Notes under the pieces: model-generated
What the model saw: the letters and a program-made list of their open reading frames with translations, nothing else
Databases searched by the model: none
Told to the model about the DNA's origin: nothing
Part shown: in pieces, positions 5,877 to 64,000 of the stretch
Numbering within the stretch: position 1 is the first letter of the stretch
Layout: the number at the start of each line of letters is the position of its first letter
From: Tubulanus polymorphus
Lineage: Eukaryota > Animalia > Nemertea
Reading direction: 5' to 3'
Length of the DNA stretch: 64,000 nt
Assembly (NCBI RefSeq): GCF_964204645.1
Contig: NC_134030.1
Coordinates: forward strand, 16,554,110-16,618,109
Translations under genes and position numbers: made by a program

Positions 5877-6911
5877 TTGAGCTGATACATTTACAGATCA
5901 CAAAGGTTGCATCTGCACCCCCCTGCCCTAGCACGATTCTGAATCAGTATCATTGTATGGTGTATTATTGTCCTGGGATTGGTGTACTAGAGCCAGGCAG
6001 TGGGTGGTCACCAGAGGCGCAGATTCCAGGGGCCATGGCCCCCTATTTTTGATTGGGCTTACTGAGTAAGTTACTTCCTCGGAAGGAAGCATATGGGAAT
6101 GTTACTGTATTAATGACTGTGAGCATCATTTAATACTGCAGTAACAGTAACACTTAGTGTAGTAGGCCTACAATTGGGCCTGTATAGGGCCTAATCGAAA
6201 ACTTGAATTTTAATTCAAAAATAAACACTGACTTAGCCTAATACGTACATGTATTCTTTAGTTCTTCTATGGACTGTACAGAAACTAAATACGTCTCGGA
6301 GGTCACGCTGCTCGAAATACGCTGCAAAACCATGACTGCCACTTGACTTAAGAAGTTCTTCTGCTGTCTTGAAGGCGATGTTGCGCGCCACGTCAATGCA
6401 ATGTGAAAAGGTCAAAACTGCCGCCAAATAACAATGAATTTGAAAAAAACCTCTTGGTTGATGGCGCCACCATACAGTATTATGCGATCGGCAATTGGCA
6501 AACTTGAACGTTTGGCATCGACAATTAGCAATCGGCAATGAGCAATCGGCATGTCCCTCCAGGTATTCGGTACACTGAAACAAAGATTCTACCGAGTCAG
6601 GGCATTCAGCTAGCAATTCATCATCGCTTATCAAATAATCCCATCACATATTTTTGTCCAAATCAATCGTCGTTATGTCGGGTTGTTCTCCATCATATGG
6701 GTGACCCCTAGTGAAAATTAGTTACGCTTTTAGTACACTAATTATTGGCCTACTAATTATTGATGTTGAAATAAAATTGGATCATGAGGCCATGTCATGT
6801 ATTGAGACATGTGATGATTTTAAGTAAAGAAGATTGATTTCATTAAGAATATTCGATTAATACAGTTGCTTATAACAATTTTTTAGTGCATTCAGATTGT
6901 ATTTTGGCGCT

Positions 6912-6996
6912 AGTAATAGGGAAAGTGGGCTTTCAGATCAGAGGTCGAAGGTCGACCACTCATCACCACAAGTAATTTTTTTCCCTTATAAATGGG
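6912..6996 (+). repeat. Left terminal inverted repeat of Maverick A
   Basis: Reverse complement of 23201-23285. It ends in TATAAATGGG, which includes the ATG at 6992. Confidence 0.95.
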
Positions 6997-7318
6997 AGAT
7001 AGAAAAGCATTCTCAGCAACAATAAATAACAGATTAAAACCAGCAAAAAAACAATTTGAAATAAAAAAGTTAATTGATGTTACAAAAGAAATTGAACATA
7101 AAATATTGAAATTAGAAAAGATAAAAACTAAATATGGAGAGAAAGTATCAGCGAATTTAAGTTACCGTAATGTTAGTACATCGCGAGAATTTAAAGTATT
7201 TTTACCCGATAAATGGGTTTCATTGAGTACAGAGGAATTAAAAGATTTAGAAGGATTTAAAATAATCTATCATGGAAAAAATGGAGACGGTCATCATGAT
7301 TTAGAAATTGTTGATTAA
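6992..7318 (+). CDS. Hypothetical Maverick protein (108 aa)
   Basis: Intact ORF that starts inside the TIR at TATAAATG. Confidence 0.6.
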   Translation: MGDRKAFSATINNRLKPAKKQFEIKKLIDVTKEIEHKILKLEKIKTKYGEKVSANLSYRNVSTSREFKVFLPDKWVSLSTEELKDLEGFKIIYHGKNGDGHHDLEIVD

Positions 7319-7624
7319 ATAAAAAATAAAAATAATGAATATCTAAAAATGACCTTAGTCGTTTTACGAACAACTACAATCATACAGCCAAACATCTGTT
7401 ACATGTTATTATAAGAGAGTGCTTCATTTGAATAATGATCGATCAAACAGGTGTTGCAATTCAACGTTGTTGTTATATTGGATAGCTAGCAGTTATATAA
7501 TAAGCGCGCAGTACATACAACACACACAGGATACATTCTCTCTCTCGTGATTAAAAGGAATATTTCAGTGTTTTTAAGGTAAGTTTTAGCAAAATTGCCC
7601 TATCCTCGACCTACAGAGTTTTCA

Positions 7625-7805
7625 GGGGATAAGCATCCCATTATTGAAAGGCGCCACGGGACGCTTATCCCCAGTCATTTCTACTTACACCCCCGCGACC
7701 CACGTTACCCGGGATCTCCTTCAATGATTGGCAGAAATCACATTATATTAAAGGCGCCTAATGTAATTTCTACCAATCTCGAAATTCAAACCGAAGGAGA
7801 AACCC
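7625..7805. ncRNA. Candidate structured non-coding RNA: two hairpins sharing a loop
   Basis: Stems 7625-7641/7656-7672 and 7726-7745/7759-7778. Loops tattgaaaggcgcc and tattaaaggcgcc. Outer stem tctccttc/gaaggaga. Confidence 0.5.
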
Positions 7806-8349
7806 GGAGAGTGGACGAAGGTGCATTTTCAAAATGCCTCTGCTGGCCAGAGCTACTCCAGCGTTGGAATAAATTGCCTTATATACTTAGCTAAAACACC
7901 TAAGTAAATGTTGTTGGTGTTTACTAAAGAAATATGTGAAATTTGAAATTATAAATTATTCCGAATGAAAAGAATATAGGAATGAAAACTGATAAATGAA
8001 TTATGGATTTTTAACTTAATTATGATATAATTTCTAATCAAATTAGTAATCAATTACCATGTTAATTGATTAACAAATTCAAATTCAAATATTCATTTTA
8101 GCATCACACCCAGTGCTGCCATCTTTCAATTTAAGAAAAAACTAATAATAAGAAACGACTGTTATACAATATTCAAGTAAAAACTTCAAATTAAAAAACA
8201 GAATAAATTAATAAAAATAATGAATATCTAGAATCCGAAATGACTTATCTGGACAATTTAATTGCTCCGCATAGATGGTGCCATAAACGGCACCCACACA
8301 GTGATAGACAAAAGTAGTGAGATATTCAATTATTTTTTTTGCTTTTTTT

Positions 8350-8709
8350 CTAAATATTAATCCATTTTTTTATTATCAATTTTGGAATTTCAGAAGTATT
8401 TTCATTTTTGATAGCAGTTGTTTCAGAATTATTAATATCATGAATTTTATTTGATTTCTTATACCAATTACACCCAATCAAAATGAATACAATTACAAAT
8501 CCAACTGTAAAATATAGACATTTATCAAATATTCTATTATTAGAAGGAGTAGAAATAACAATATTTTCACTATTTTTATTAACATTTTTATTACTTATTT
8601 TTTCTTTTACAGCTTTTTTATATTCTTGTGATTTAATTCCTAATTGCCGAGACCATTCAATTTGTTTCTGTGATCTCGGTTTTTTCTTCACTTCTTCCAC
8701 CTTGTTCAT
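8350..8709 (-). CDS. Small basic protein with one transmembrane helix
   Basis: Hydrophobic CLYFTVGFVIVFILIG segment, TAAATG start, homologue at 31422-31819. Confidence 0.7.
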   Translation of the reverse strand: MNKVEEVKKKPRSQKQIEWSRQLGIKSQEYKKAVKEKISNKNVNKNSENIVISTPSNNRIFDKCLYFTVGFVIVFILIGCNWYKKSNKIHDINNSETTAIKNENTSEIPKLIIKKWINI

Positions 8710-9248
8710 TTATTATAGAAATATTTTTACTTTCAATATTTGAAAATGTTATAACCCCAGTTGATAATAATGTCATAAATCCGCCTAATTGAAATAAGAA
8801 ATATCCAATCCATTTATTTAATTTAGTCATAACTAAATAATCATTTTTCAAATCGGAATATAATCTATTGTCATCTTCAATTGGTAGTATATAATTACAT
8901 AATTTACTATAACCTTTTACTACATTTTCTGATATCGGGTCATTAATTCTAGCTGTTCTCGCGGTTTCATAAATCTCAAATAATCTAATAATTTCATCTG
9001 ATTTCATTGTATCTAATTCATTATAAGTTAAATTTTTACCGATAAAATTTTTACATTTTCCAGATGCTATTAATATTTCTAATTGATGTTTACAATAAAG
9101 ATAATATTCATAATTATTATTTGTTGTCACATTTTTTAAAGCACCATCATCTGGAGTTAATTTTGTTTCTGTTATTCCTAAATCATCTAAAGTTTTTTTC
9201 AATTGGAACATCACCATTTTTAGATTTTATTTTCTTTTCACCTCCCAT
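8657..9248 (-). pseudogene. Conserved hypothetical Maverick protein (frameshift near the 5' end)
   Basis: Homologous to 30827-31429 (YEYYLYCKH.LE.LIA.GK). The true start is probably TATATAAATG at 9248. Confidence 0.7.
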
Positions 9249-9437
9249 TTATATAACAAAAAAATTAGTTGTGATGTTGCAACTAGAATTTAACTAGAAT
9301 GTAACTAAAAATATACTAGATTAACAAGCTAGTTAAAATATTGTTGAATTTTATTTGATTTTTGTTTCAAATACCAATAACTAGAATTCAACTAGAATGT
9401 AACTAAATATGTAATAGATGAACAAACCTGTTGAATT

Positions 9438-10045
9438 TAAATAAATTCATATTTAAATGGGTGTTGTAATCTAAATAGTAATTTTGATCTTTTAATATTT
9501 TTCAACTTATCCATATATTCATTATGTAAATCATGTGGAATAATATAATTTTCCTCAAGTGCATTTTTCATCGATTTTCTATCTTTATTGTAGAATAAAA
9601 CTAGAAATCTAATGTTTTCTCTAAAGTCTTTAACAATTGAATTATATTTTTGATTTAAAACCCATGTTGTTATCCCAAAATGTCTACCAGAAAAAGCTAA
9701 ATAACATTACTCACTCTCTCTAATTTTTGAATCATGTAAATTTGCACAATCATCTATAATGAATAATGTATTTGATCCTTTATAAATATCTATTGATATT
9801 TTAATACAATTATCTAAATTTTCTTTTACTCTTCTAGGATCTAATATAATAAATTTATTATTTTTAGTAATATTTCTGTCATAAGTTTGATTAAATTCAT
9901 GTGTTGGACAAAATAATACTATATTATCAAAATAGTTTTTATAAACAGTTTCTAATAAATTTAATATAAAATAAGTTTTTCCACAATTTGTTACGCCAGA
10001 AATTAACATATTATAAGGCTCAAGTATAAATAATTCCTTATTCAT
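9438..10045 (-). pseudogene. A32/FtsK-like genome packaging ATPase
   Basis: Walker A ISGVTNCGKT and Walker B FIIDD. After a premature stop at 9707 it continues CYLAFSGRHFGITTWVLNQKY. Confidence 0.9.
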
Positions 10046-11100
10046 TTATATATTTTTAATTTTACTTGATAATATCCATTTATTGAATTTATCTGGCCAT
10101 CCAACCCATTTTACTAAAGAATATTTTTTTCTTTTAACAGTTTTTGTTTTTAATACTCTTTCAATTTTATATTCTTGTTCTAGATTTTCAGTAGTTAAAC
10201 TTAATTCTTCTTCGTAAAAGTAGCCATCAACTTCTTTACCATCTAAATCTTCTAATTTATAGACATATGGTTTTGTTGTTATTACCTTTTTTATTTTATA
10301 TATTTCTCTAGTAAAATTTCGATCGTATCCTTTGTCAAATATCTTTTTATACTTAGAAATTCTAACATTTTGACCAACTTTAAATTTAGGTTCGCCAAAA
10401 TCATCTACAAGAAATGCTCCATATAAATTATTCCAAACAATTTCAGCATTTTCAGGTTTTCTAGCATCAATAGGTTTCATTCCAATAGAAGAATGATAAG
10501 ATGATTATTATATCCTTCTATCAATTTTGGTAAAACATCAATCCATTTAAAAGTATTATTTGCTGTAAAATATTTCCACATTCTTGTTCTTAATGTTCTA
10601 TTAAATCGTTCAACAACTGCTGCTTTTTTATCCGATTTTGTTGAAAAATATTTAATATTATGATTGTCTAAGAGTTCATGAACAAGTGAATTATCAAATT
10701 CTTTTCCATCATCAAATTGTATTTTTTCTGGTTTTAGTTTATCATCCGAAAGAAATCTTCTTAAAACATTTGATGTTTTACAGCATCTTTTCTATAAAGT
10801 GGGAAGCTCCATACATAACGACTAAAAATATCAATTATATTCAATAACCACCAATAATCATCATTATCTTTCTTAATATTTTTCATATCAATTAAATCTC
10901 CTTGCCACTGTTGATCTTCATAACTTACCATAGTTTGATGAGTTTTATATTTTCTAACAATTTTTTTATGTGTTGTATATGTTGGTTGTTCTAACATAAA
11001 TTCATTTATATCTTTATATTAATTGTATTAATTGTAAAGATATCTTTATAAATTTCTTAAATATTGTTCTTTAGTATTATTAGTTTTTTTAACCGCCCAT
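10046..11100 (-). pseudogene. Retroviral-like (rve) integrase with C-terminal chromodomain
   Basis: QWQGDLIDM, IDIFSRY, QFDDGKEF, VERFNRTL, and chromodomain YKIERVL..LVKWVGWPDKFNKWI. Several frameshifts. Confidence 0.93.
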
Positions 11101-11147
11101 TTATATATCCTTAATTTTAACTTCATATTTCTAATATTGAATACTAT

Positions 11148-12363
11148 CTAATTTACAATATTTAATTGTGCGTCAGATATAATATAAATGTGCATTTTTA
11201 AATTTTTGATTCCTTTATTCTTTGTCATGAATAATTGTATTCGATCTTTAGTGTTCTGTAGTTTTTTTCCAGAACCATGTAATGAATTATCCTCTACTGT
11301 TCTAAAATCTAACCATAATGCATATTTATTACCGGTATGATAATCAATTTGATTAATATTACAATTTTCAGATGATTTTACTTTTTCATTCATATAATGT
11401 TTTCTAATTTCTGGCCATTGATCAATCATTCTCATTCCTTGACAAAATATTTTATTTGCTATTCCTTCGATAGTTATTTCTACTTTTGTTATTTCAGGAT
11501 TATAATAATTATCAACATTTATTGCACCATTAGTATATGTTGCAATGGTAAAAAATATTAATATACCTTTAATAGATCTTCTTGGGAAGTTAATAATCTC
11601 ATTGATTATTTCATCATTTGCATTAATAGTTACAGTTTTAAATTTATCAATATAATCATATAATAATGAAAATCCTTGATTGTATTGAGTTTGAATTGTG
11701 TTAGCAATATTTTCATTAGTTACTGTGTCATATTCTAAACATATATTCGATAATTTGTAACCCATATCTTTAGCAACGCTAGATAATACAAATTCATTTA
11801 CAGGAGCAAATGTTATCTCAAATATAATATCTTCTTGAATTACATATTTATATAAAGGTGCATTATTATTTATCAATTCAAAGTCTAATGGAATTTTATA
11901 TTTGCTTCCATAAATTTTTTTTATCTGCGGCACGAGTTACTATTGCGTCATTAGCTCCTGATCTTAATTTATTTTGGTTTTCCGATTGAATGCCTTGAAA
12001 TATCATATTATTTCTATTTTCTTTAGTTAACCATAAATCTTTATAATGCATAAATAAATTATAATCATCTAATGAGAAAACTGTTTCTGGACCAATCTTT
12101 ATAGTTAATTTTTTAATCAAATATCTCCCAACATTATCGACAACATAATTATTATCATAACCAGTTACTTTTATATCGGCTGATAAATAAATACTTTTTG
12201 GAACATAAAAAGTATTTTGTGTTAATCTAGGAATTCTAACATATAAAGTTTCATCGGGATTAATATTTGAAGGATTATGAGTAATTATATGATGTGATCT
12301 TTCTGCTTTAATAGCATTAGATATTCTGGAAATCTTAGAAGGACTTATATAACTCCCACTCAT
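11148..12363 (-). pseudogene. Major capsid protein (double jelly-roll, Polinton/adintovirus type)
   Basis: ORFs 11896-12363 and 11148-11933 are joined by a frameshift in an A-run. Motifs HNPSNINPDETLYVRIP and YALWLDFRT..DNSLHGSG, about 400 aa in total. Confidence 0.8.
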
Positions 12364-12419
12364 TTATTTAACAAAAAAATTAATTATTTATTTTTTATTA
12401 TTTTTTCTTGATATCTTTT

Positions 12420-13135
12420 TGATATCATATTCACTAACCAAAAAATAATAGAACTTACAACTGTGATTAAAAATAAAATAATATGTTCAGCAGCAAAGTT
12501 AAGAATATTACCTGCAGATTTCAATATAAAACCAACAATTGATGCAATAATTCCTGGTTAAGCTGCAGCAGATTTTTTAGATAGTTCCCATAAATATTTT
12601 GCTAATTTCTTTAAACCATCTTTAACTTTATCTTGTATAGAATTATTATCATTCGGGGGTTTATCCGGTTTATTGGGAGTAGGAGTAGATTTCAAAGAAT
12701 TTGATATTGCTAAACCAATTGTTGTAAATAACATAGTTACAGCTGTTAGAATTGAAAGAATTGTTATTCCTTCTAATTTAAATAATAACTTTATTCTATC
12801 TTTTAATGATATTTCAGAATTTGGTTTTATCAACAAATCTTTAAAAATAACTTTTAATCTATTAATATTATAATAATATGATTTTAATAATAATTTAATT
12901 TCTTCTTTCTGTACTTCTAAATTATCTTTTAAATTATTAATTTCTTTTTCTAATCGTAATTCCTTTTGCCTATATTCTATTTCATCAATTACTTGATGAT
13001 CTAAATCAGACTTTAATTGTTCTATTTCTTTATTTTTATCAGTTAATTCTTTTTCTAAAGTTCCAATTTTAATATCTCTTATACTTTTATTATGTGCAAT
13101 TTTATCAGCTTCATTTCTTATACTAATAATTTCTC
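12420..13135 (-). pseudogene. Coiled-coil plus hydrophobic C-terminal virion-associated protein remnant
   Basis: Heptad-rich EKELTDKNKEIEQLK.. followed by LFKLEGITILSILTAV and KKSAAA*PGIIASIVGFIL. Confidence 0.5.
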
Positions 13136-13445
13136 TAATTGGTTAAATTATAATTTTGATATCTTACAATGTTTTCTGGAATCGATCTATTTTTATCATT
13201 ATGAATGGAATCTTCAAATAATACTTTGAATTGTTTCTGCGCATCGAATGAAGTGTTATCATTTCCAATTATTGGGGATCTTGTTTCAACTTGCGCACCT
13301 AAAATACATAATAAATAAGCTCTAATTGATTGATTTATTCTTTGTATACCAGCTTTAGTAAAACCTTCACTATTTTCTAAAATGAAATTAACCCAACCAT
13401 TATTGTTTTGTTGTTGTATATTATTATAATATTTTGGTAATTCAT
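13135..13445 (-). pseudogene. Internal fragment of a conserved Maverick gene whose 5' part probably survives at 32977-33606
   Basis: GFTKAGIQRINQSIRAYLLCILGAQ. It is fused by deletion to the end of the upstream ORF. Confidence 0.55.
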
Positions 13446-13858
13446 TCCAATAATTTAACTTGTTCTTCAACTGTTATATGACCATTTAAACTTATTATAT
13501 TATCTAGTGTATTTTTTAATTTATTAATTTCTTTTATATTAGTTTTAATTTTTTCTTTATTATTTTTTATATTTAATTTTGAACTTATACCAGTTAAAAC
13601 ACTTGAACTTAATCCTAATACGCCAATTGATATAGCTAAAGGTGTTAATGGCGAAAATATTGATAATGTTATTACAGAACTAATTGTAACCGAACCACTT
13701 ATAATCAAATAATATATAATTTTAGATTTTAAATATTTTTTCTTTTTAACTTTTAAATCATTTTCAAATTCTAATATTTGTTTTTCTAAATATATTTTTA
13801 ATTTAGTTTTATTTATATCATGAGGAATAATATCAATATTATCAACTTTATCATCCAT
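13442..13858 (-). CDS. Hydrophobic-hairpin membrane protein
   Basis: Two hydrophobic segments between coiled coils. Near-identical copy at about 33630-34048. Confidence 0.6.
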   Translation of the reverse strand: MDDKVDNIDIIPHDINKTKLKIYLEKQILEFENDLKVKKKKYLKSKIIYYLIISGSVTISSVITLSIFSPLTPLAISIGVLGLSSSVLTGISSKLNIKNNKEKIKTNIKEINKLKNTLDNIISLNGHITVEEQVKLLE

Positions 13859-13877
13859 TTATTTAGAAAAAAAATTA

Positions 13878-14340
13878 CTAATTAGTAAATCTATATGCTA
13901 CAAATATAACAATAACAGTTCCACCTAAAATCCATATTATTTCATTTTCTGTTGTTCTTTACTTGGGGTATAATAATCTGATAATTTAGGTTTGTATAGA
14001 TGTAATTTTTCTTTATTGGTTACTGCGTTATATAAACTCATTGCATCATCGACTGATTGAAAATCTCTGTGTGAAATCTTCTGATCATATAATGCCTTGT
14101 TAATAATTATATTAATATATAGTTTTGCCTCTTTTCTCCATATTCTTCTGCTGCTTTATTGTATTTTTCTAATGCTAAGTTATGTCTTCTTTGTTCTCCT
14201 AATGAACTATTTTTATCAATATGCTTGAATAAATAACCACCACCAGTAAATGCTAAAGCGTTAACAATTGCCGATCCTATAATAGTTATAATTGCGTTAA
14301 CAATTGCCGATCCTATAATAGTTATAATTGCAGAAGCCAT
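13878..14340 (-). pseudogene. Small virion/membrane protein (intact copy at 34068-34490)
   Basis: Same sequence as 34068-34490 plus a 36-bp tandem duplication (IITIIGSAIVNA twice) and frameshifts. Confidence 0.7.
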
Positions 14341-14364
14341 TTATTTAGTAAAATAATTACGCAT

Positions 14365-14586
14365 TTATATGGGAGGAATATATTTTTGTTTTTCTAAATA
14401 ATCAATAGTTAAATTAGATAGAGTAACTGCTAATGTTAATTTTAAGATATCATTTATATCAAATCTATCAACATTAACACTTCCCATTTTGAATACTTTT
14501 TTTAATACCATTGAATAACCAACAGTTCCAACTGATAGTAATGCTCCATTATATAATCCAGTTATTATCCACTTATTATCACTCAT
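14365..14586 (-). CDS. Small hydrophobic Maverick protein (73 aa)
   Basis: TAAATG start. Copy with an internal stop at 34515-34736. Confidence 0.65.
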   Translation of the reverse strand: MSDNKWIITGLYNGALLSVGTVGYSMVLKKVFKMGSVNVDRFDINDILKLTLAVTLSNLTIDYLEKQKYIPPI

Positions 14587-14943
14587 TTATTTATCAAAAA
14601 AATTACTATCATCAAAATATTTAGTTAACTTATTTATGATTAAATCAATATTTATTTCATTACTAGTTTCATTTGTATATATTTCAATTATTATTTTTTT
14701 AATATCATCGATGATAAAATCTTCATCTAATTCATAAAATCTTAAAGATTCGCTAATTAAATTAGTAATCTTTTCTACATTTAAAGTTTCTTTATCTATT
14801 GTTGTTTCATACTCAAATGTTGTTTCATTAGAAAATGCAATATTTTTGATATGTATAATTACATCATTAATGTTAAATTTCATTTCTTTCTCACGTTTAA
14901 AATCAAACCCAAAACATATACTCGGTCCAACAGTTATATTCAT
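14587..14943 (-). CDS. Hypothetical acidic Maverick protein (118 aa)
   Basis: TAAATG start. Its TAA stop abuts the next ATG. Disrupted copy at 34737-35093. Confidence 0.6.
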   Translation of the reverse strand: MNITVGPSICFGFDFKREKEMKFNINDVIIHIKNIAFSNETTFEYETTIDKETLNVEKITNLISESLRFYELDEDFIIDDIKKIIIEIYTNETSNEINIDLIINKLTKYFDDSNFFDK

Positions 14944-14959
14944 TTATATAGTGAAAAAA

Positions 14960-15666
14960 TTACTCTTTACATCTTATAACTAATTCATTAATTACGGGAA
15001 AGTTATTCAAATCAATTAAATATCCATTATGATTTCTTATTTCTAATTGAAAATTATTAAATTGTGGTATACAAGGTTTAAAATCACATTCAGCTAAATT
15101 ATAATTTATTTGCGTTCCAAATTGTTTAACATTTTTTAATGGTAAAATATTTAGTATACTAGAATTACAAATTGTATCTTTAGTTGCTTCAAATGTTTTT
15201 GTAGGATCAATTAAATTGCAATAAATATAGAAATGTGTGTAAGGTATTAAATTTGAGCTACCCTCTGCGTTTCCAGTAACAATACGCGGTTTAATTCCTA
15301 ACATTTTAGCTACTGGTTTGTTTACCATAAATTTATTTAGTTCATTGGCTAACTTTATTTTAATTTTATCAGAACTATCACTTTTTATAAATCTAATTGA
15401 AAAATTATCTTCACTTCCAAGTTTTAATCGTGCTTTCCGATTAATGTCTTGGGCTAATGTTTCTAAATTATATAACCCTAGTTTTAAAAATAGATGAAAC
15501 CATTTATTTATATTCTAATATGAATTAAAAAGTCTCTATGTTCAAAAGTTTTAGCCGATATATTATAAAAAGAATTACATAAACTTATATTTACTAATTT
15601 TAAATCTACACAATTCTTAAATTCTCTATCTAATTGAACTAGTAAATTATGTGATTTAATTACCAT
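14960..15666 (-). pseudogene. Probable minor capsid (penton) protein
   Basis: Homologue of the intact 250-aa ORF 35110-35862. FYIYCNLI and LEIRNHNGYLIDLNNFPV resemble Polinton minor capsid C-termini. Confidence 0.65.
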
Positions 15667-15730
15667 TATTTATAACATAAAAAAATTACCGCTCATCACT
15701 AAAAATTAATTTTAATAAAATTTTTTCTAA

Positions 15731-17056
15731 ATGAATAGATGAGAAGATAGGATGTGAAATTTGTGGTGAACTTCTAAGAAAAAGTAATATGGCTCGACAT
15801 ATGAAAAAACATGAAGAAAATTATAAACCCCTAAAATAAACTGCCCAAAATGTAATAAATTATTCTCAAGAAATTATGTTAAAAAACATTCAGAGAAGTG
15901 TAAAATTAATGGCGCAACGGCTAATGTTGATAGTAATGAAAGTAATAGTAATTCTGTTGAAGTTGAATCTGAAGTTATTTGGAAAAGACCTTTCTTATTC
16001 TATGACAAGGATAATATAAAAGATTATTTCTGTGAGCATTGTCGATAAAATATAGACCTGAAAATATCGAAAATTGGGAGAAACATCAATTTCGTAAAGT
16101 ACATATACATAAAATTTCTAATAAATTTGAAACTGAATTCAATGAAAGAAAAAATAAAATATTAGAAAAAATGAAATATGAGAAAACGTTGCCAGATAAT
16201 AAAGAAACAGTTGAAAAGTTAGAAAAGCAATATAATGAATTAACAAGAAAAACATATTATTGTAAATATTGTAAATTGATTATTACAGCAAGTAATTCAA
16301 ATCTACATAATAGAACAATAAAACATAAAGAAAACGTAAGTAAATACCAAGAGCTTAATGAAGATCTATTACCAAGAAATTATAAACAAAAATGCCCAAA
16401 ATGTTTTTATGCGACCTTAAGACAAGAGGGTACTGAGATATTTTGTGTTGATTGTGGATGGCAAAGGAATTTATGGGTGAAGAAAAAACTAGAGATTTTC
16501 TCATAGAACCAAAATTAAATTATCTAGATGAAATTTTTAAAATATTTTCTATAGAAGATCATACACCAGAATATAAGCAATGGCTTGAAAAAATGAAAAT
16601 AATAGAAAATAAAAATGGTGAAATAACTAAAAAAGATATTATAAAAAGAATTATTCCATCAACATTTTAACACAAAACAAAAGAAAATGTATTTATATTT
16701 ATTATTTAACGATTATTATGAAAAACCTAAATTAACAGAAGAAGATATGGAAAATATAAAAAAAACATTCAAACAAATACTAATGTATCATTTGGAAAAT
16801 AGAATAACAGATTCAATTAATTATGAATTATTTCAAATAAGATTGTAAATTATTTAAACATCGATATTATAATTCCATTTGACGAATTAACAAACAAAAA
16901 GAAACGAAGAGAGCGATATGAAATGTGGTACAAGATAGAACTTTATTTAAATGAGAAAAATGAAATGGAAGAACCTAAACAAATTATACAAGAACAATTA
17001 AATGAAAATGAAGAAGCCAATAGTGATTTCGAGTATGATGATATTGATTTTCTGTT
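15731..17056 (+). pseudogene. Multi-zinc-finger protein(s), convergent with pPolB
   Basis: CEICG..HMKKH, CPKC, CKYC..HNRTIKH and CPKC..CVDC motifs across frameshifted ORFs. TAAATG start at 15731. Confidence 0.55.
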
Positions 17057-17512
17057 TTAATGGCCATAAGGTAATGTTTTTATACCATCATCTAAAATAT
17101 GCCTTTTATCATTGAATGGATTCAAACTAGTTTTTTCAACTTCATTAATGTACATCTCGTGATTAAACAATCTTAAACAATTCATTTTATGTTTCATTAC
17201 AATTGAGTTATATAAACACTTTATATAATCTTGAAATTCTATATGTTTATCAACCACATGTTTTGTTATTCCTTTTACCTTTTTAGCTTCATGATCTTTT
17301 GTTCTATAACTATACATTTTACTTCTTATCCCAACAAATTAAATCATTTCATCACCCCCTAATTCATCTTTAAACTTACTAGGAATCTTTTTATTATCAT
17401 TGCTAAATAGTTCATGATCTTTGGGATAATTGCTAAGATCAAAATGATGTTTTAATGTTTTTAAGTCTTTTGTTATGTCATTTGTCTTGATTTTTAGTAT
17501 GTAACTGTCAGT

Positions 17513-18555
17513 ATTGAAATCCACAGTTGAATGTGCCATCTTCAGTTGATATATCATAGACATAATCTGATGGGTTATATATTTCAAATAAATCTTTAAC
17601 TTCTTCAGTTAAATCTTTTTCTGCGTGGCTTAAATTAAAGCAATTTGGTTTAGATTTAATCAATCCAATATTCATATTGAAGCCTAATGAATTACATAAT
17701 ATATTTAACCCTGATATAGCAACTTTTCCTTTCTGTGCAAAGGCTATCTTTTTATCCTTTGTAAATTTTTTAGCACCATCTGCTGCGTAGAATCCAATGA
17801 AGAACCATTTTCTTAAATTGTTTTTTGCATTTAGTACATAATCAGGAACTATCTTTTCTTTAGTTGAAGTATTACTTTTCACTATTGCATGAATATAGAA
17901 TTCATCATTATATTTTATGGCAAAATCTTTAGGATTATTTACAAGTATTCTATAAACTGCTGATGATTTCATAACATCCATGATTTTAAATGTTTTATGT
18001 GAATAAACTTCTTCACAGAATTTCTTAATTCTTTCTAATAATTTCAAGTCTTGATTGCATAAATACCAACAATATTTATTACCCCAAACATAATTATACA
18101 CACCTGCTGAACCATCACCCATGAAAAATCCTTTGATAAAATATTCTTTTTCTTCTAATGTTTCAGGTTCTATATTTTAAATATTATCAATTATTTCATC
18201 AAATGACATATGATTCATTCTTTGGAAAAATCTCTTATGTAATAATTCTCCAATTTTTATATCAGTTGGTTTTATTTCATTACCATTTCGTTTAATCAAA
18301 CTATGATCTTCTGTAACATCTACAAACTCTAATTTAGTTCTAACTCTATAGATTTTCTAATTTGTTTAATGCCTAATGATATTCTTTAATTTTTTCCATC
18401 CATTTCTTGTCCAAACATCCATTAAACCATTTATTTGTATTAATTTCACCATATGAAATATAACATTCATTTTGTTTTGGAATTATTTCTGAAATTCTTC
18501 TTATCAATATTTTATCATTACATTTTAATAATATTGGGGTGTCAGCTGTTACAGA
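17513..18555 (-). mobile_element. Intein with LAGLIDADG homing endonuclease in pPolB motif C (decayed)
   Basis: YFD|SVTADTPILL (block A), VDVTEDHSL (block B), IKGFFMGDGS and FIGFYAADG (LAGLIDADG blocks), YVYDISTEDGTF (block F), and N|TDS at the C-terminal junction. Confidence 0.92.
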
Positions 18556-21540
18556 ATCAAAATATAATATTTCAATATGCTTTTCTCCAAAAAGTGGTTG
18601 TAAAACATTATAATAAAAATCATACATTAATAATTTTGATACTTCTAAAACAGTTGAACCAATGAATATAGGTTTATTAAATTTCATTGACGTTCTTTAT
18701 AATTTAACTGCTGTTAAATAATCTTCAAATCTTTTATTTCCTAAATGTCTAGGACTTGATTGTAAATGTCTTGATCGTTCAGAATTATTTACTAATTCAA
18801 TATCATTTCTATTTCTAATATTTTCACATGTTTTACCATAAAAACTATTATTCATTAATTTGAAGAAATCTTTTTCAAAATCTGTTTTTGATATTGTTCT
18901 CTGTTGAGTATTGAAATCTATATATTTTTCTAACCACTTCGATTGATTTAATTCAATATATCTATGTACTTTCTTTAATTTCATTCCTTGTTATAGATAA
19001 AATTCTAACATTCTATAATGAACGTCCTCGACATTGTAATTATTATTTTGAGTAAGTTTAATTTTTCTGTAAAAACATGATCTTTCGGTTTTATTTTCTT
19101 CTGGTATTCACTTAAATAACTATCATCTACGGTTAAATGTTCTGGGCAATAAGGTAAGTTTCTAGTTTTAAACTTTATATTTTCAGGATATTCTAAATCA
19201 ACTACAAAGAAATAACCAATTGGTGCTTCATCTTTTAAACTCATAATTGCGCTTTCCCAATCAGTTTTATCATCATTTTCAACTTCTGTTAATATAAAAT
19301 TTTTATATGGTTGAGGTTGCATCATTGCCCAACCATATAAATTATCGGCGTCAATATATAATAATTTATATTCATCATTTGCTTTAAAATATATATCTCC
19401 CATAACACCACTAATTCCACCTCTAATTGATTTTTCAAATAATAAAACCATGTCTGGTTCTTTTAATAAATCTAATTCTACATTTGTGTATTTTAAACCA
19501 CATTGCCAGGTTAAACCAGGACTAGAGTAGCAATAACAAGGATCAACATTAAAATGATTCAAATTAACTTCTCTAAATTTTTCAAATATGTCAGCCAATA
19601 TCATAACATCTGATTTTAAATATAAATCAACTAATTCACCATGATTTTTCATCTTAAAATAGTTCCAAATATTTAATGTTCTATTAAACACTTCATCTTT
19701 CACATACTCCTCTTTTAATTGATCATAAAATTGATCTTTTAATAATTCTGTTACATTAAAATCATTGTGTGTTTTATAAAATGAATAAGGAATTGCACCT
19801 TTATATCTCAATAATTTAAAATCTTGTTCATTTGGATAATAATATCGAGTTATAACAAAATCATTATCAACTAAACTTTTTGCTAAATTATCTAATGAAC
19901 TTGCTAGAAATCTATAAGAATCTAAAAATCTAATGCAACCAAATTGAAATGAAATATAATTTTCAGATGTTTTAGCTAATAGTTTAAAATCATATTTTCT
20001 TACATTTACACTATTCATAGCATTATATTCTTCTATTTCTTGATTAATTGCGCCCAATTTTCCCGATAATTGTTTTTAAATAGATGGGTATCATAGCCTG
20101 ATAAATTATGAAATAATATTGGTACGAAATTAACTTTCTTAGCTTGTAAATTGCAATCTTCATGAGCAGCTCCACGATATTTTGAATTTAAATGATCATG
20201 ATCTCTAACTTTTTTATCAAATGAATAAAAACGTTTTTCACAGTAACAACAATGAGTTGCGTAATTAAAATCAATTTCATCTTCTTTTGTCATAACTATT
20301 CTTTTATTTTTGTTTAATAATTTTGCAAAATCACTTTCTAATTCAATCATTTTGTCACAAAAATCATTAACTGCATTTTCACCTCTAAAAGAAATATATT
20401 GACTTTCATATAATTTAGGATAATTTGATTTTATATAAATTCCATAAGCAGCAGCTCTGTGATGAACTTTTTAAATTGTATTTATAATTGGTGGGTCTTG
20501 TGTTGTGTCTTCATTTTATTCATTTCCTTTATCCATTGATTTTAATAATTGCTTTTTGTTATATATTTCTTTTCTATCTTGATCGGTTAATTCTTTATTC
20601 AACGATTCAAAATCCCCATAAATTACAAATGGAACGATATTCTTAAATTTATGATTAGTACATTTCAATTTATAATCTTTTTCTGTTGGCATTATTAATT
20701 TACAAAAATCTTTATTATCACATAATTCTTTATGTTTTAATAATGTATTCTCAGTCATTAATTTAGATATTTTCTACATAGATAAATTTTATGATGATGA
20801 TCACTTTCTGTTCTAAAGAATAAATCAATTTGTTTTAACCACATATAATGTTCATTTTCATCTTTTTTGTAATATAACAAATCTATAGCATTTTCATCAT
20901 CATAATATTCTGTTAAATATAAAGCTTCCAATGTATAATCTTTAATATTTTCACCTTTTGTCTTTGGTAATTGCATTAATTCGAATATTTTTATTTTTAA
21001 ATTATTAACTTTTTCTATTTTAGGAATCATTTTTATAGTTACTGGATATTGATCAATTTTATATAATGTTTCATATTTCCGGTAATCTGTTATTCTACAA
21101 ACATTTTCCTGTGTTGGATGTAAGCAACTAATAATTGACCATAGAAAACATTTATTATCTTCATTTTGAATATTTATTACTGCTTTTGTTATAAATGGTA
21201 ATTTAATATAAGATGATGCTTTTATATCCTCCTTTTCTGTTGTAAAGTTTGAATCATTTTTAAACATTTTATTACTTTTTGATGTTTTATTTCTTTTTAA
21301 TCCAAAAATATAATTTCATTCAATGTTAAGCCAGAACCCTCAAAATATCTTTCTTCAATATGACGTTCAAATTCATTAAATATTTTTTCTAACTTCTCTT
21401 TTATTTGTGTTTTTGAAATTATTTCTTCAGAAAGTGTTTGAATATTATAATCCATTTTATCTTCTGACTTTAAAAAACTTACTTTCCCAGAGATACTAAT
21501 TTTTGGATATTCAACATCTGTTATCAAATCTAGTATTTTT

Positions 21541-22698
21541 TGACGCTTTATAAAACGTTACCATTATGAAACCTAAACAATGCTAACCATTCAGCGTCAT
21601 TTTACAAACGACAGCCGTAAATCGATGTGCAAAACGTCACAGGTTTATGTGTACACAAACAAGCTATCTGGCAAAATATTATTGACATAGATGTAGAATG
21701 GCTTCCTGTGATTATATAATGACCTATATTTGAACGTCGAAATGTTATATTGCATTGAATATCATTAGAACACGTATTGTAATAGTAAAGGATGTATGAT
21801 TATATCAGAAGCGGCAGGCATAAATAGAAATGATAAGTAAATCGGATTATTCGATTAAATGGCGGATGTATACACGATGCGGAAGTCCGATATAAAAGTC
21901 AGACCCTGACGTGGGCATGCCGGTGGAATGACGAAGCTATCTACGATGTGTGTAGGGCCGGCGTGAATTTCATCAGCGGCTACAAGCGGTCAATATGAAA
22001 ATGTGTAAACATATAATTTCAATATTCAATCGTTTGTGAAAATATGTTTGATATTAGGAGTATGCAAGTTTCGTGAGATTAGCAATTTATAAAAGCATAG
22101 CTGTCATATACGGCTCCGTGTCCTCTGATGGCATGTGTATTAGGTGACAATTCAATTCAATTCTTTATTGATCCTTATTACTTTGAAATTCCGGGATAAA
22201 ATTCCCAAATTCAATAAATACAAATTTTAAAATAAATTAATACAACATACATGACACACGGGTAATTCATACAGAACAACATAAGCATGTTATTTTAATG
22301 ACAATGTCTACTTCAACTCACCCAGACTCAAGACTCTAGGATATCGAGTGACAGCCAAACCCGTGGCCCGGGACCGGGCCGGCTGGCTAGGCCACACGAT
22401 ATGCTCGAAGTCATGATGAAGCAGACATCAGAAGAGCTCTTTCTTCATCCATGGAGGCAATGAAGTTGCAGACCAGCTTAGAGGCATAAGTAAATGAAGT
22501 CGGTCGCAAGTTCGCGATCAATTATTGAGAATTTTCAATAAAAAAATTTAAACCACTACCAGAGTCGAAGACCTGTATCATCTACCCAATCTCCAAATCT
22601 CATCATTCCCCAAATTTCTTAAAACTTCGATTTCAAATTTGCAATTGCACATTAGCTTAGCTTAGCCCAGAAATTCTACATTTTTTTCCCTGGCGTCA
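21541..22698. mobile_element. About 1.16-kb non-coding insertion into the pPolB 5' region
   Basis: Abrupt composition change. Inverted ends TGACGC...GCGTCA. Removing it joins FRKL-LKILDLITDVEYPK in frame. Confidence 0.6.
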
Positions 22699-23200
22699 AA
22701 TAATTTTCTAAAATTAATTATCTTGTTTCTATTATTTCATTAAATTTACTAAAATCTTCTATTGTTGTACCTTTAAAAAATCTTTTATTTCAAATGAATC
22801 AATATAATTTCTAACATTTTCCATGTAAGGTTTATTTGAAATGGATTTAGTTTTTGAAGTTGGTTTTTTTACTTGTTGAGGTTTATCATCAAAATAATCT
22901 TTTCCTAAAACATTATTACTCAAATTTTGATGGTGTTTTTGTGATTCGAGATGTCTATTATAATTCCTTTTGACTATAAATTCATTACAAACTTCATATT
23001 TTATTTCATCCACATTCATATTTTCTAATCGTTCTTTTCTTTCATTGGAATTTTCTGGAGTTTCAAAATCTATTACATTTTTTATATGATTTGCAGATTT
23101 TTCATGTGATTTTTGGGATTTATCGATGTGTTTTTTACAATATGAACAATAATATTGATTTTTATTAACATTATTATTTTCTGGCTGGTGTTCATTCTCC

Positions 23201-23285
23201 CCCATTTATAAGAGAAAAAAATTACTTGTGGTGATGAGTGGACGACCTTAAACCTCTGATCTGAAAGCCCACTTTTCCTATTACT
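23201..23285 (-). repeat. Right terminal inverted repeat of Maverick A
   Basis: Ends CCTATTACT followed by the TSD GGCGCT. Contains the ATG at 23205. Confidence 0.95.
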
Positions 23286-23899
23286 GGCGCTCAGATGCTA
23301 TCCCCTTAACAACCATTTCAACGGCACCCTAGCTGCTGTTGATAATTCACAGTGAGTAGGTTACTACGCAAGTGTTTTCGCAAATAAGGGTCGCTGTGTA
23401 AGCTGTGGGCGCAACAAAACTGCAATTTCCCACAATGACAGGAGTTGCCACGCGGATGACGAACTGTAGAAAGCCGTACGAGCTCGGATGCTACAAGGGA
23501 GATCATAGGCAGCGTTTATTGTTTCACGTCCCTTAGTTGAAGAGTCCATGGTTTTAGTAAGATGCAAACGTAGAGATCGCCTGCATTTTCTGTGAGAAAC
23601 TTTAAACATATAATTTCCTTATATATCATTCTTGTTCATATGCCGGGTTGCGTCTACTTATTGAAGAACTATCTTTCAGGAATGCGTGTTCTCACTTTGT
23701 TATTGTTATTTTTGGTTTCGATTTTGACTTAGGGCCTCTTTTTGGCGAACCGTAGGTTTCCCTGTGCAAACCGTCTGGAGAAGGAGTTTTCATTGAAAAT
23801 AAATAGAGTACCGGTGTGTCAACAAGGCACAAACATTGGCTATTGATAATAGTGTTGATTTTTGGTGTCATGGTTTGGCTTATAAGTTCTTGAGCCCAT

Positions 23900-27639: not shown

Positions 27640-28042
27640 AGTAATAGGGGTAATAGGCTTTCAAATCAAAGGTCGAACGGTCGAGCTCATTAAAAAACAA
27701 AATATTAAAAGTAATTTAAAACTATAATATATTTTCATAACCGTGTGCATTTCGTATTATAACTAAATATTTATTCTAAGATATTAATAATTTTAATTTT
27801 AAAAGCATATTGTATTAAATCAATTGGTCGCTCCGCTTCGCTACCGCTCCGCGACCAATTGATTTATTACAATACACAAATTCATAATCAAATATATTTT
27901 AATAATAATAATTATTCTATTATTCAACTGAAATGCACACGGTTATGAAAATATATTATAGTTTTAAATTACTTTTAATATTTTGTTTTTAATGAACTTG
28001 ACCATTCAACCTTTAACCTGAAAGCCTATCACCCCTATTACT
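27640..28042. repeat. 403-bp fold-back with a nested central hairpin
   Basis: Arms 27640-27753 / 27930-28042. Inner aatcaattggtcgc / gcgaccaattgatt. Confidence 0.9.
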
Positions 28043-28275
28043 CTTAAAATATTCATATACATGAATAACATTTAAATTGACAGATTATTCAATATAAAGG
28101 TGTGAGCTCTTATAGAATAGATATATAGATATATTTTAAACATTATTTCAATATTCATATTTGTATGAGTTAGATTTTTAAACATTAAAAGTGTTAGTAA
28201 AGTGTGATTTAAATAATTCATATATAAATCATTGAACTTCTAAAATCAATTTAGTAAAAAAATATGTATAATAAA

Positions 28276-28943
28276 TCGAATCAGAACAACCACAAACTAT
28301 CAATATTACAAATAACACTGGCGTCATAAATATATACTACAAGAAGTGTTCTAAGTGTGAATTAGATAAATTAGCTTTAACAGAATTTAGTAAGCGTAAG
28401 ATTAGCAAAGATAGTTTTCAATATTGCTGTAAAACTTGTTTTAAACTATATACCAAACAATACCGAGAAGATAATATAGAAAATTATAATTATTATATGG
28501 CAGAATATATAAGAGATAAGATATAAAACAGATCTTAATTTTAGATTGAAACAATGTTTAAGATCTAGATTAACACAATTATTCAACAAAGAAACACATT
28601 CAGAAACACTATCTAATTTATTGGGTTGTTCAGATGAATTCTTAAAATCATGGATTTTTTTCAATTCGATGATGAAATGAATATAGATAATTATGGTGAA
28701 TACTTTCATATTGATCACGTGTTGCCGATTTCTAAATTTGACATGAGTGATGATTATAATAAGAAGCTAATCTGGAACTGGAGAAATTTAAGACCTTTAG
28801 AAAAGAAATAAAATATAATTAAATCTAACAAACTAGATATGAAATTATATTTAGATTAACTAGATTAAGCAAAGACATTTGTTGAATTATGGAATAGTAT
28901 TTCACAGAATCAACCGCATTCTGAGGTTTTAATCAGTGGTTAG
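28276..28943 (+). pseudogene. HNH endonuclease with N-terminal zinc ribbon
   Basis: KKCSKC..CKTC, LLGCS, HIDHVLPISKFD and WRNLRPL..N..KSNK. The start codon appears mutated (TAAATC) and there are frameshifts. Confidence 0.8.
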
Positions 28944-29309
28944 AAAGCTGGCAATTCTATTTGAGCTTTGTATGTCTATAATACATAGCTTTTGCTTACT
29001 ACTAAAACATATGTTGCCAAATATATCTTGTTTTCAATTCTAAAGAATTAATAAACTTCATCATAAAAAACATCTGTTACAATCCAGGCAAACATGCAGA
29101 AATAATTAGTTTAGTCGAACGTGCGCCACGTCGGCAGTTAGAAATCAACTTTCACATACATAGTACGTATTGGATATTCTCTCTCAAAACACAGTTTACA
29201 GTTCTAAATCCAAATGTAAGTACCGTTTTTTGTAGTTATTATGAAGTAGGGAAACCTTTAAACATATTTAAGTACAGTAATTCATTTTCACGGCATCTTT
29301 TAGATTAAA

Positions 29310-29776
29310 ATGGAATACAGAGATCGACCAGAAATTCCAAGTCAACCATCGGAAGAGGAACCAGAAACGATGGATAGTGAAACACAGGAATCAATAGAAA
29401 TGGAGGATGAAACTCTCGTAATTGACGAACAAACTTCACAAAATTACAAGAACATTTGGATTATCATCAAGAAATCGTGAAAATTCTGAGTGATGTAATA
29501 CATAATAAACAATTACCGCGCGAACTACAATTACCAAAATTACCAGCAACGCGACTTAAATTGCTGTTGGGACTCAAAGAATCGAAAACTAAGAAAATGA
29601 GTGGAGATATCAGTGCCGGCTTTGAAAGAAAACTGAGAAGAGTAGGTAGATTAATAAAATATGAAAAATTCAAAATATTAGGATTAGCATTTAGTGAAGT
29701 AGTCAGATATTTACCAGAAATTAAAGAAATGATTGGAAACAATCCAGTAATTAAAGAATTCTGGACAAAATTATAA
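29310..29776 (+). pseudogene. Cargo gene (about 155 aa, acidic N-terminus) with a putative 5'UTR intron at 29216-29303
   Basis: MEYRDRPEIPSQPSEEEPE.. is joined by one frameshift to ORF 29456-29776. gtaagt...tttag lies just upstream. Confidence 0.5.
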
Positions 29777-29877
29777 ATTATAACACTGAAGGTCTTTGTA
29801 ATATAGATATATCAAAAACATGTAATCTCGATTGTATATATCTGATTTAATATTGTATTGTTTACTGTAAACTAAGT

Positions 29878-30094
29878 ATTGCGCAATAACCGGTCCGATT
29901 GGACCGCTTTTCTATTGTTCTCCATTGTTCTATTATCGATCGTTGTTGACGGAAACAGCTGCTCAATATTGATTGGTTACAGTTCTATGTTTGAATGTTG
30001 TAGTTTACAGAATAAAAATATAACTGTGCATTGCGCAATAGCCGGTCCGATTGGACCGCTTTTCTATTGTTCTCCATTGTTCTATTATCGATCG
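29878..30094. promoter_or_regulatory. Duplicated 65-bp module with C/EBP-, CCAAT- and SOX-like sites
   Basis: 29878-29942 and 30030-30094 differ at one base. Each contains ATTGCGCAAT, cggtccgattggaccg and two ATTGTT. Confidence 0.45.
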
Positions 30095-30301
30095 CTAAAA
30101 TTTACATAATAAATATATGTGTTTATGGAATAATATTTCCACCAGTCGTTTCGTTGAATTGATTTTCAGTTGAGGATTTATTATCGAGGATCCGAAATGA
30201 CTTATCAAAAGCAGCGAGGAATGAAAAAGGATGACGTTAGTCGAAGAAATGGAAGAAGATTCTAAAATGTGAATCAATTTTAATAAAAATTTGATTTATA
30301 A

Positions 30302-30517
30302 ATGGAAAGGAATGATGAATACAATAAAAAACTTATTTGGAATCGGAAAAATTTAAGACCTCTTGAAAAGAAAGAAAATAAAAAAAAATCTTATAAACTA
30401 GATTTACAGTTATATTTAGAACAGTTAACAAAGGCAAAGAAATTTATTGATCAATGGAACAATGATCCAAAAAATGAACAATACGTTGAGGAATTTGATA
30501 TCAAGGATCCGAAATGA
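30302..30517 (+). CDS. Duplicated C-terminal part of the HNH protein
   Basis: YNKKLIWNRKNLRPLEKKEN matches about 28750-28900. It has its own TATAAATG start. Confidence 0.6.
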   Translation: MERNDEYNKKLIWNRKNLRPLEKKENKKKSYKLDLQLYLEQLTKAKKFIDQWNNDPKNEQYVEEFDIKDPK

Positions 30518-30826
30518 CATCTGGACAGTTATAATTACTGCTCCTAATAGATAAACAAAAGTAGTGAGATATCAAATAGAATTCAAAAAAAAAATATATT
30601 AAAAAAACAATAACTTCAACTAGCCATTATTTCTATTTTAATTTTTAATATTTTCTTTTACAATTCTTTTCAAAAGAGAATACTTTATATCGCAAATAAA
30701 AAATACTAAAAAACAATAACTAATACTAAAATTCTTTACCTTTAACTAAGCTAGTATCAATCTAAAGAGATACTGGTATCATTTTATAATACTTATATTT
30801 TTTTTTCACTTTTTTCTCTAATATAA

Positions 30827-31429
30827 ATGTCAAAGAAATCGAGTAAGAATAGTATTGATATTGAAAAGACATTACATGATTTGGGTATAAGTGATAATAA
30901 AGATACAGTTGTAACTAATTGTGCTCAAGTTAATTGTAATATTGATTATGAATACTATTTATATTGTAAACACCATCTTGAATTACTAATTGCTGGCGGG
31001 AAATCTAAGGATTTCTTGGGAAAAATAATAACTTTTCAAGAATTAGATGCTATGAAACCAGATAAAGTAATAGAATATTTTAAGATTTACGAAAAAGTTA
31101 GATTAGCTAGAATAAATTATTTTATTTCAGATGGTATTGTCAAATGTTACTCTAAGTTATGTAACCAGTTAATACCAATTGATGATGAAAATAAATTATA
31201 TAGTGATTTGAAAAATTACTACTTAGTTATGACTGAATTACAAAAATGGGTCGGATATGCTTCATTTCAATTAGGATCGGTTATGACATTAATTTCTACT
31301 GGTGTCATAACATTTCCGAACATCAAACCTATGGAATATAAATCAGGTAAGAACGAAACAGATGTACTACAACCAAACCGTGAAACAGAAAATGAATCAG
31401 AACAAAAATTAACTAAAATAAATGAGTGA
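30827..31429 (+). CDS. Conserved hypothetical Maverick protein (200 aa)
   Basis: Homologue of 8657-9248, with TAAATG start. Confidence 0.75.
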   Translation: MSKKSSKNSIDIEKTLHDLGISDNKDTVVTNCAQVNCNIDYEYYLYCKHHLELLIAGGKSKDFLGKIITFQELDAMKPDKVIEYFKIYEKVRLARINYFISDGIVKCYSKLCNQLIPIDDENKLYSDLKNYYLVMTELQKWVGYASFQLGSVMTLISTGVITFPNIKPMEYKSGKNETDVLQPNRETENESEQKLTKINE

Positions 31430-31819: not shown

Positions 31820-31825
31820 AATAAG

Positions 31826-32934: not shown

Positions 32935-32976
32935 AATTTAATGTTTCTAAATCCTTTGTTTTTATTTTACCATAAC

Positions 32977-33606: not shown

Positions 33607-33629
33607 TTATATAATTAAAAAATTAATAA

Positions 33630-34048: not shown

Positions 34049-34067
34049 TTATTTAGCAAAAAAATTA

Positions 34068-63910: not shown

Positions 63911-64000
63911 CGTATGACGGGCTGAATCTAGTTTCCCTGATTCGGAGGCCTCTGGGCGGAAGTACTATGGTTATAGTTTCCGTAATTACGCGGCGATGCA

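Follow-up and report, generated by a model that had tools for sequence, protein, structure and literature searches.

The 64,000-nucleotide stretch of Tubulanus polymorphus DNA analysed here (the window) contains a broken LAGLIDADG intein, which interrupts motif C of the protein-primed DNA polymerase of family B (pPolB) of an integrated Maverick, likely in an animal genome. We hold it probable that the intein came from a giant-virus-type PolB, likely in one entry, and that it then likely spread among Mavericks by homing.

The insert occupies positions 18555 to 17513 on the minus strand and is exactly 1,043 bp long; in translation its Ser codon starts at 18555 and its Asn codon ends at 17513. 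Motif C is divided as YFD/S...N/TDS (slashes mark the junctions), the junction sequences being KHIEILYFD/SVTADTP (from 18555) and N/TDSYILKIKT (from 17515). The original prediction of an intein of about 1043 bp splitting motif C was therefore exact in extent, and all the motifs that it named were found, each on the minus strand. Block A (SVTADTP, 18535-18555) starts with the nucleophile Ser1, and its mimivirus counterpart begins SVTGDTP. Block B (VDVTEDHSL, 18297-18323) contains the TxxH motif, which is the same in 6 of the 6 intact Maverick inteins tabulated. The LAGLIDADG helices IKGFFMGDGS (18108-18137, matched by PF14528) and FIGFYAADG (17775-17801, conserved among relatives) both have acidic catalytic residues (GFFMGDG and GFYAADG), and block F (YVYDISTE, 17541-17564) was recognised from the sequence and by comparison with relatives. 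The class 1 residues Ser1, TEDH, final Asn and Thr+1 are all there. When the element was scanned with four motif patterns, themselves derived from the observed sequences, they gave 1, 1, 2 and 1 matches, against none in 100 base shuffles.

Profile searches with the main frame (X at the stops) gave 25.2 bits for LAGLIDADG_3 (PF14528), exceeding the cut-off of 22.5. Pfam Intein_splicing matched with E 1.1e-7 but its 32.3 bits did not reach the curated cut-off of 35.8, and the TIGR01445 profile matched neither of the two window pieces; of the Hint and LAGLIDADG matches looked for after the original prediction, only the latter thus passed its threshold. The extein flanks align on both sides to P0283-P0285, the nearest intein-free polymerases, with about 70% identity (KHIEIMYFD-TDSYILKIKT), and 58 reads skip the insert exactly, so the flanks do rejoin into pPolB motif C as had been proposed. 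A spliceosomal intron or a chance insertion was rejected by the protein motifs and the exact junctions, and a Hedgehog-type Hint domain by the internal position, the LAGLIDADG motifs and the kinship to PolB inteins.

The window copy of the intein is broken at five points, by a frameshift at about 18445, by three in-frame stop codons (18368, 18359, 18179) and by a block-G deletion near 17516. The deletion had been predicted, and the other breaks add to it. About five codons are gone and the frame is changed directly before the Asn, where intact relatives have GFPLIxxN. The penultimate residue, deleted here, is His in P0013, P0026 and P0027, Lys in P0002 and mimivirus, and Ser in P0001. Being broken, the window copy can neither splice nor cut. 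Its sequence motifs and Pfam matches, its identity to the intact P0001 intein and the skipping reads confirm the insert at 17513-18555 as a real intein with a LAGLIDADG homing endonuclease, of the PolB motif-C (site III) family and now pseudogenised.

The polymerase belongs to a Maverick/Polinton copy of 16,374 bp (6912-23285), which begins with AGTAATAG and ends with CTATTACT. Its terminal inverted repeats (TIRs) are 90 bp long and 92% alike, its GC content is 25% vs 38% in the flanks, and 515 reads diverge into unlike flanks at its left end, 6912. The copies of the target-site duplication (TSD), GGCGCT at 6906-6911 and at 23286-23291 (plus strand), are a perfect 6-bp match. TIRs, a 6-bp TSD and AGT/ACT ends are the marks of Mavericks (PMC8097293; here and below, papers are cited for the parts of them that were covered). 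The element is therefore chromosomally integrated, in agreement with the claim of a genome-integrated Maverick.

All of its recognisable genes (pPolB, integrase, packaging ATPase and major capsid protein) are broken. The N-extein of pPolB (18556-23166, minus strand) was identified by PF03175 (E 1e-11) and by tblastn of the intein-free P0285 across the region; the C-extein (17057-17512, minus strand), 70% identical to P0285, starts with TDSY and so supplies Thr+1. The same polymerase gene has a second nuclease insert, endonuclease-VII/HNH-like, at 20036-20470 (PF02945 E 0.0015, below the cut-off), and its 5' part holds a high-copy secondary insertion of 1,187 bp (21539-22726) that 232 reads skip and where depth rises to about 3,000. 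A piece of an A32-like packaging ATPase lies at 9707-10045 (PF04665 E 1.4e-7), a retroviral-type integrase with a chromodomain at 10046-11018 (rve E 2.2e-4, below the cut-off; Chromo E 1.4e-5), and a major capsid protein broken into two frames at 11148-12363 (Capsid_N E 0.0012, below the cut-off), all on the minus strand. The integrase and capsid matches stay under the Pfam cut-offs because these genes are in pieces; the integrase matches at 71% in DNA a second copy whose rve score exceeds the cut-off. The Atlas look-alikes of the capsid protein are viral clusters, mostly annotated Nucleocytoviricota and some with Capsid_NCLDV/Capsid_N members; the recognition score was low. No Pfam match to a cysteine protease or a minor capsid protein was found among the element ORFs scanned; the stretch 14960-15514 may resemble a minor capsid protein.

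Further Maverick-related DNA was observed in the window. Reads skip about 880-1,120 bp at 7320-8230, which is likely a further secondary insertion near the left end of the element. A second, rearranged Maverick-like remnant occupies 27640-35862; its segment 33624-35806 is 90% identical to 13427-15658, and its integrase module (31936-32892), in the opposite orientation, is 71% identical to that of the first element. No match to pPolB or to the intein was found in this remnant. Short palindromic units at 849-1190 and 27640-28042, about 70-78% alike mutually, start and end with the same sequences as the Maverick termini and are possibly small non-autonomous derivatives. No Rfam family was found in the window.

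Other Maverick copies of this species occur with and without the intein. In raw WGS run X5, from another sample and study than the four runs that contain the window stretch and each of which may be its source, 58 reads with about 39 start points jump exactly from 17513 to 18555. A further 52 X5 reads bridge the flanks with other codons that encode the same TDS, and one contig of run X1, from a second study, also bridges the empty site. Read depth was about 242 within the intein, 586 and 716 immediately outside it and about 11 in one flank bin. Together with the exactly skipping reads, these depths bear out the intein-plus and intein-minus alleles anticipated in the original prediction. They also suggest that empty copies outnumber intein-bearing ones, and as a rough estimate from that one flank bin, that there are about 20 intein-bearing copies. 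The intein-bearing share came to roughly 35-40% at 80% likeness and 60-80% at 85% likeness, an estimate in which the conserved motif draws reads from distant subfamilies and flank depth comes from a single bin. Most reads are 90-99% alike to the window copy. At its three stops, a different sequence stands in 218 of 228, 216 of 230 and 238 of 240 reads (94-99%), and 142 of 195 reads have an indel at its frameshift; its breaks are therefore mostly private. No read or contig spans the whole intein, and no intact copy was seen in the reads of this species.

Intact relatives were found elsewhere. Most matches to the intein query are RNA-primed PolBs; others are protein-primed polymerases with an insert at the same site. 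An intact intein is present in Maverick polymerases of four clusters of the same class as the window's (P0001, P0013, P0026 and P0027) and in one of a second, distant class (P0002), and P0324 is a truncated further case. P0002 is assigned to the other pPolB class because it gave no BLAST match to the main stretch of the window's polymerase and matched the window only around motif C. PF03175 scored 45-62 bits in the window's class vs 111 bits in P0002. Alpha adintovirus PolBs are of the pfam03175 type and Beta PolBs are more divergent (PMC8502044), and a comparison of these Pfam scores with that description suggests that the window's class is of the Beta type and P0002 of the Alpha type. The intein frame is open in all five, and the intact relatives retain Ser1, TxxH (TEDH), both LAGLIDADG aspartates, the last Asn and Thr+1. 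The same D/S...N/TD junctions could be parsed in 224 of 277 fetched proteins. The P0013 intein exceeds the PF14890 and TIGR01445 cut-offs and P0324 that of TIGR01445; P0001 and P0002 score slightly below the latter, and NCBIfam gave no match for P0026. Splicing by the standard route is predicted for the intact members.

The window intein is 62% identical to that of P0001 over 311 residues, 49% to that of P0013 and 45% to that of P0002; RNA-primed PolB inteins reach at most about 43%. Among themselves the Maverick inteins are 41-62% alike, and the mimivirus intein is 41% identical to the intact P0001 intein. A structural model of the P0013 intein (pLDDT 94) gave intein-homing-endonuclease structures in the top 14 PDB rows (E 1e-16 to 5e-9), with 2cw7, TliVMA, PI-PfuI, PI-SceI and I-DmoI among the fold matches. 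Its best fold matches in BFVD were PolBs of phycodnavirus, pandoravirus, megavirus and marseillevirus. The proposed kinship to giant-virus PolB motif-C inteins was thus upheld by the mimivirus identity and by these folds. A PDB sequence search with alignment A1 returned matches dominated by the polymerase exteins, not the intein. No relative of the locus was found in viral contigs or metagenome contigs, and no match in annotated phages. As a separate observation, residues 1178-1183 of P0001 give an N-flank of EIIYGD as in giant-virus PolBs, and its nearest empty relatives have ELLYQD or ELLYLD; YGD occurs at 2 of 111 empty pPolB sites, and in P0001 it is possibly a co-converted donor remnant.

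In phylogenies the Maverick inteins fell among giant-virus-type PolB motif-C inteins, as the original prediction would have it, and formed one clade. The support for this clade was 98 in a FastTree of 214 rows, 100 in a mixture-model quick tree of 57 rows and 100/99 in a careful LG+G4 tree of 34 rows, where the P0002 intein was nested within it at 96/88. These trees, rooted at midpoint only, exclude 53 of the 277 proteins as having no parsable junctions (including the fragments P0162 and P0194 and the truncated P0324), 6 near-duplicates, P0258 and inteins outside 300-460 aa. A GFPL-type C-terminal signature occurs in all 6 intact Maverick inteins and in 28 of the other 207, one of these being named Mimiviridae sp. 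ChoanoV1. The sister of the Maverick clade changed from tree to tree, being a GFPL giant-virus group with SH 90 (57 rows) or P0237 at 93 (214 rows), and was unresolved with 34 rows; the donor can therefore be called only a likely GFPL-type giant virus.

The polymerases themselves carry the intein sporadically. Among 117 further pPolB hits (P0278-P0394), 111 have an empty site, one has an intein and five do not span the site; P0093 and P0112, which have a precomputed PF03175 label but are RNA-primed-PolB-like, were left out of the pPolB counts. The six intein-bearing rows among the 125 of the polymerase tree, which is without P0002 and counts as intein-free five rows that span the site poorly, require 6 changes, equal to the number for shuffled labels, and at least 5 are forced by starred branches. 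The Maverick inteins are patchily scattered over the polymerase tree, and the window and P0001 are neighbours in both trees.

The P0013 cluster has 136 members, on contigs as long as 1 Mb, of which 40 were read and 15 are listed; these 15 comprise 7 full alleles, 6 empty ones and 2 fragments. Compared with P0013, the 6 empty alleles have 13-19 differences in the 55 residues around the site and about 1-5% elsewhere, and the full alleles have 1-3 in these 55; the range from -10 to +45 was picked after the differences were seen, so that p-values for this comparison are inflated. The P0013 sequence HYMD/TDSFVLSVNTKDI finds a match in P0315, P0329 and P0358; elsewhere P0315 and P0329 show 73-75% likeness. 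The site-centred divergence fits co-conversion of flanking codons from a diverged donor, and it could equally reflect escape of the target site by empty alleles, which in this family have three different motifs (YFDTDA, YTDCDS and YGDTDA). Both readings would presuppose that the endonuclease was active at some time. Two further features were observed. In 26 of the 111 empty sites, chiefly from families close to P0013, the catalytic DTD reads DCD, which could be natural variation or endonuclease resistance. In full alleles compared with P0013, 5-14 of 346 intein residues differ and 7-17 of 1,191 extein residues, a drift about two to three times faster in the intein.

We postulate that in an intact member an acyl shift at Ser1, attack by Thr+1 and cyclisation of the last Asn would splice out the intein and rejoin the catalytic YxD-TDS. 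Because splicing would restore the catalytic aspartates, the intein would cost the Maverick little and could be lost only precisely. Empty motif-C sites in other Maverick copies, or in co-infecting Mavericks, would be cleaved by the endonuclease, and repair off an intein-bearing copy would bring in the intein along with a few adjoining codons. A nucleus with many Maverick copies would offer both donor and target. The patchy distribution, the coexistence of full and empty alleles and the divergence centred on the site are indirect signs of such homing. The original jump may be explained by motif C, the one stretch closely common to RNA-primed and protein-primed family B polymerases. Since the closest relatives are other Maverick inteins in one clade, the jump between families was likely a single older event that was followed by spread from Maverick to Maverick.

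It might instead be that the intein is ancestral in Maverick pPolBs and was inherited vertically with many losses, with no homing between Mavericks. An old origin agrees with a single clade whose members are only 41-62% alike, and the window and P0001 adjoin in the intein tree as in the polymerase tree. We nevertheless consider this reading distinctly unlikely: with 111 of the 117 pPolB hits empty, very many precise losses would be required, the P0002 intein nests among those of the other polymerase class, and full and empty alleles coexist at 99% polymerase identity with their divergence concentrated at the site. The original prediction had the intein moving into this polymerase probably from a co-infecting large DNA virus. 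A recent direct capture of this kind in this host lineage, perhaps independently in each host, would account for the same site and motifs as in giant-virus PolB inteins and for the G-F-P-L-type C-terminus common to all six Maverick inteins and 28 of 207 others, including that of Mimiviridae sp. ChoanoV1. However, the nearest relatives, at 62%, 49% and 45%, are all Maverick inteins in one strongly supported clade, and the identity of the window intein to RNA-primed PolB inteins goes no higher than about 43%. The giant-virus-type kinship therefore stands, and a direct move into this polymerase appears very improbable.

We also considered that the intein is real but a non-mobile, non-splicing relic in this species, all copies being dead and multiplied only with the Maverick. 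The window intein does have five breaks, and the family is old, as judged by TIRs 92% alike and most reads only 90-99% alike to the window copy. Against this, the differences of 94-99% of reads at the three stops and the indel in 142 of 195 reads at the frameshift indicate that the breaks are mostly private, and intact relatives elsewhere retain Ser1, TxxH, the LAGLIDADG aspartates, the final Asn and Thr+1. This makes a dead family distinctly improbable in our judgement; it would in any case be compatible with past homing. Entry from a giant-virus-type PolB followed by homing is the reading that we retain.

The host of the window's Maverick is likely an animal, because the transposons in its flanks have animal look-alikes and Mavericks are mostly animal elements. 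The flanks contain gypsy, Harbinger and LINE remnants, and for one flanking element ORF the top three Atlas clusters are all eukaryotic, with Arthropoda, Chordata and Arthropoda as the commonest taxa. Maverick-Polintons are found almost always in animal genomes (10.64898/2026.06.19.733378). A non-animal host, or a stretch that is a contaminant or chimera, is highly improbable in view of these look-alikes, the perfect TSD within transposon-rich DNA, and the coverage of both element and flank in an independent 2026 WGS run of the same species. One flanking gypsy-type element (59975-63964) encodes a protease, a reverse transcriptase and then a 399-aa ORF, which includes a hydrophobic stretch, lacks a Pfam match and is possibly an envelope-like gene.

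The closest known system is the mimivirus PolB (R322) intein together with the site III inteins found in Nucleocytoviricota and in archaea (Ogata et al. 2005, PMC549080), which share the D/S...N/TD site, a length of about 350 aa, Ser1, Asn and Thr+1, TxxH and two LAGLIDADG motifs, and for which the splicing chemistry has been set out in the mimivirus case (PMC549080). Those inteins lie in the RNA-primed PolB of protist viruses and prokaryotes, whereas the polymerase that bears the present one is protein-primed and encoded by a 16-kb integrating Maverick of a nuclear genome, and the Maverick inteins have a clade of their own. Nuclease domains are likewise inserted in Polinton pPolBs as HNH and VSR endonucleases (Jeong et al. 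2023, PMC10748475; Krupovic et al. 2024, PMC11161782), and the endonuclease-VII/HNH-like insert of the window's pPolB can be compared with the HNH insert of PMC10748475. The published statement that comes nearest is a single sentence of Krupovic et al. (PMC11161782), who suggest intein invasions as the source of the HNH/VSR inserts; the term LAGLIDADG occurs 0 times in the covered parts of that paper. In the parts covered, these inserts are fused nuclease domains with no splicing domain described; the window insert, in contrast, interrupts the catalytic motif and includes a complete Hint domain.

Mavericks, Polintons and adintoviruses as described (Barreat and Katzourakis 2021, PMC8097293; Starrett et al. 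2021, PMC8502044) likewise have pPolB, integrase, ATPase and capsid genes, TIRs ending in AGT...ACT and a 6-bp TSD. The word intein is absent from the main texts of Starrett et al. (PMC8502044) and of a coral polintovirus survey (PMC11131425), with 0 occurrences in each, and it occurs 0 times in Barreat and Katzourakis (PMC8097293) according to a search listing. Inteins of invertebrate iridoviruses, and those in nuclear genes and endogenous viral elements of protists, Anaeramoeba for example, also occur in animal viruses or eukaryotic nuclear genomes, with viruses as intein vectors (PMC549080, PMC10710043, PMC5784728). Unlike the window's Maverick, iridoviruses are non-integrating large viruses and Anaeramoeba is a protist. 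Inteins of endogenous viral elements in eukaryotic genomes were included in PMC10710043, the covered parts of which do not name Mavericks, and gene exchange between polinton-like viruses and entomopoxviruses has been reported (PMC11296320). The covered parts of PMC12220804, PMC3671162, PMC13768754, PMC5718144 and PMC11296320 hold nothing on Maverick inteins. In the full-text literature, a scope outside which lie most subscription journals, supplements and RepBase, we found no account of any Hint/LAGLIDADG intein that lies in a Maverick or a protein-primed polymerase.

Metazoan genomes have been stated to be without inteins (PMC5784728; PMC8529194). The present results place a whole intein clade in Mavericks, with roughly 20 copies in a single genome that is likely an animal's. 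Because the host gene is viral and not a gene of the cell, the statement on animal genes still holds but requires a qualifier. No prior description of an intein in a protein-primed polymerase was found in the full texts searched, and the finding indicates that an intein can cross between distantly related polymerase families via one shared catalytic motif. Because homing requires two copies per nucleus and recombination repair, the full and empty alleles offer a direct handle on the question whether Mavericks behave as viruses in replication and recombination and whether they encounter giant viruses. More tentatively, and with somewhat less than even confidence, the sequence comparisons may be read to mean that the intein is a gene drive among Mavericks in animal nuclei, which crossed by way of the common motif C from RNA-primed polymerases of giant viruses to protein-primed ones and also between the two Maverick polymerase classes, may still splice and home in families like that of P0013, and would drive the change of target codons in empty alleles, as in the YFDTDA, YTDCDS and YGDTDA of the 6 near-identical ones. 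If this is true, animal chromosomes would have their first active protein-splicing mobile element, and it would mark Mavericks and giant viruses as sharing cells.
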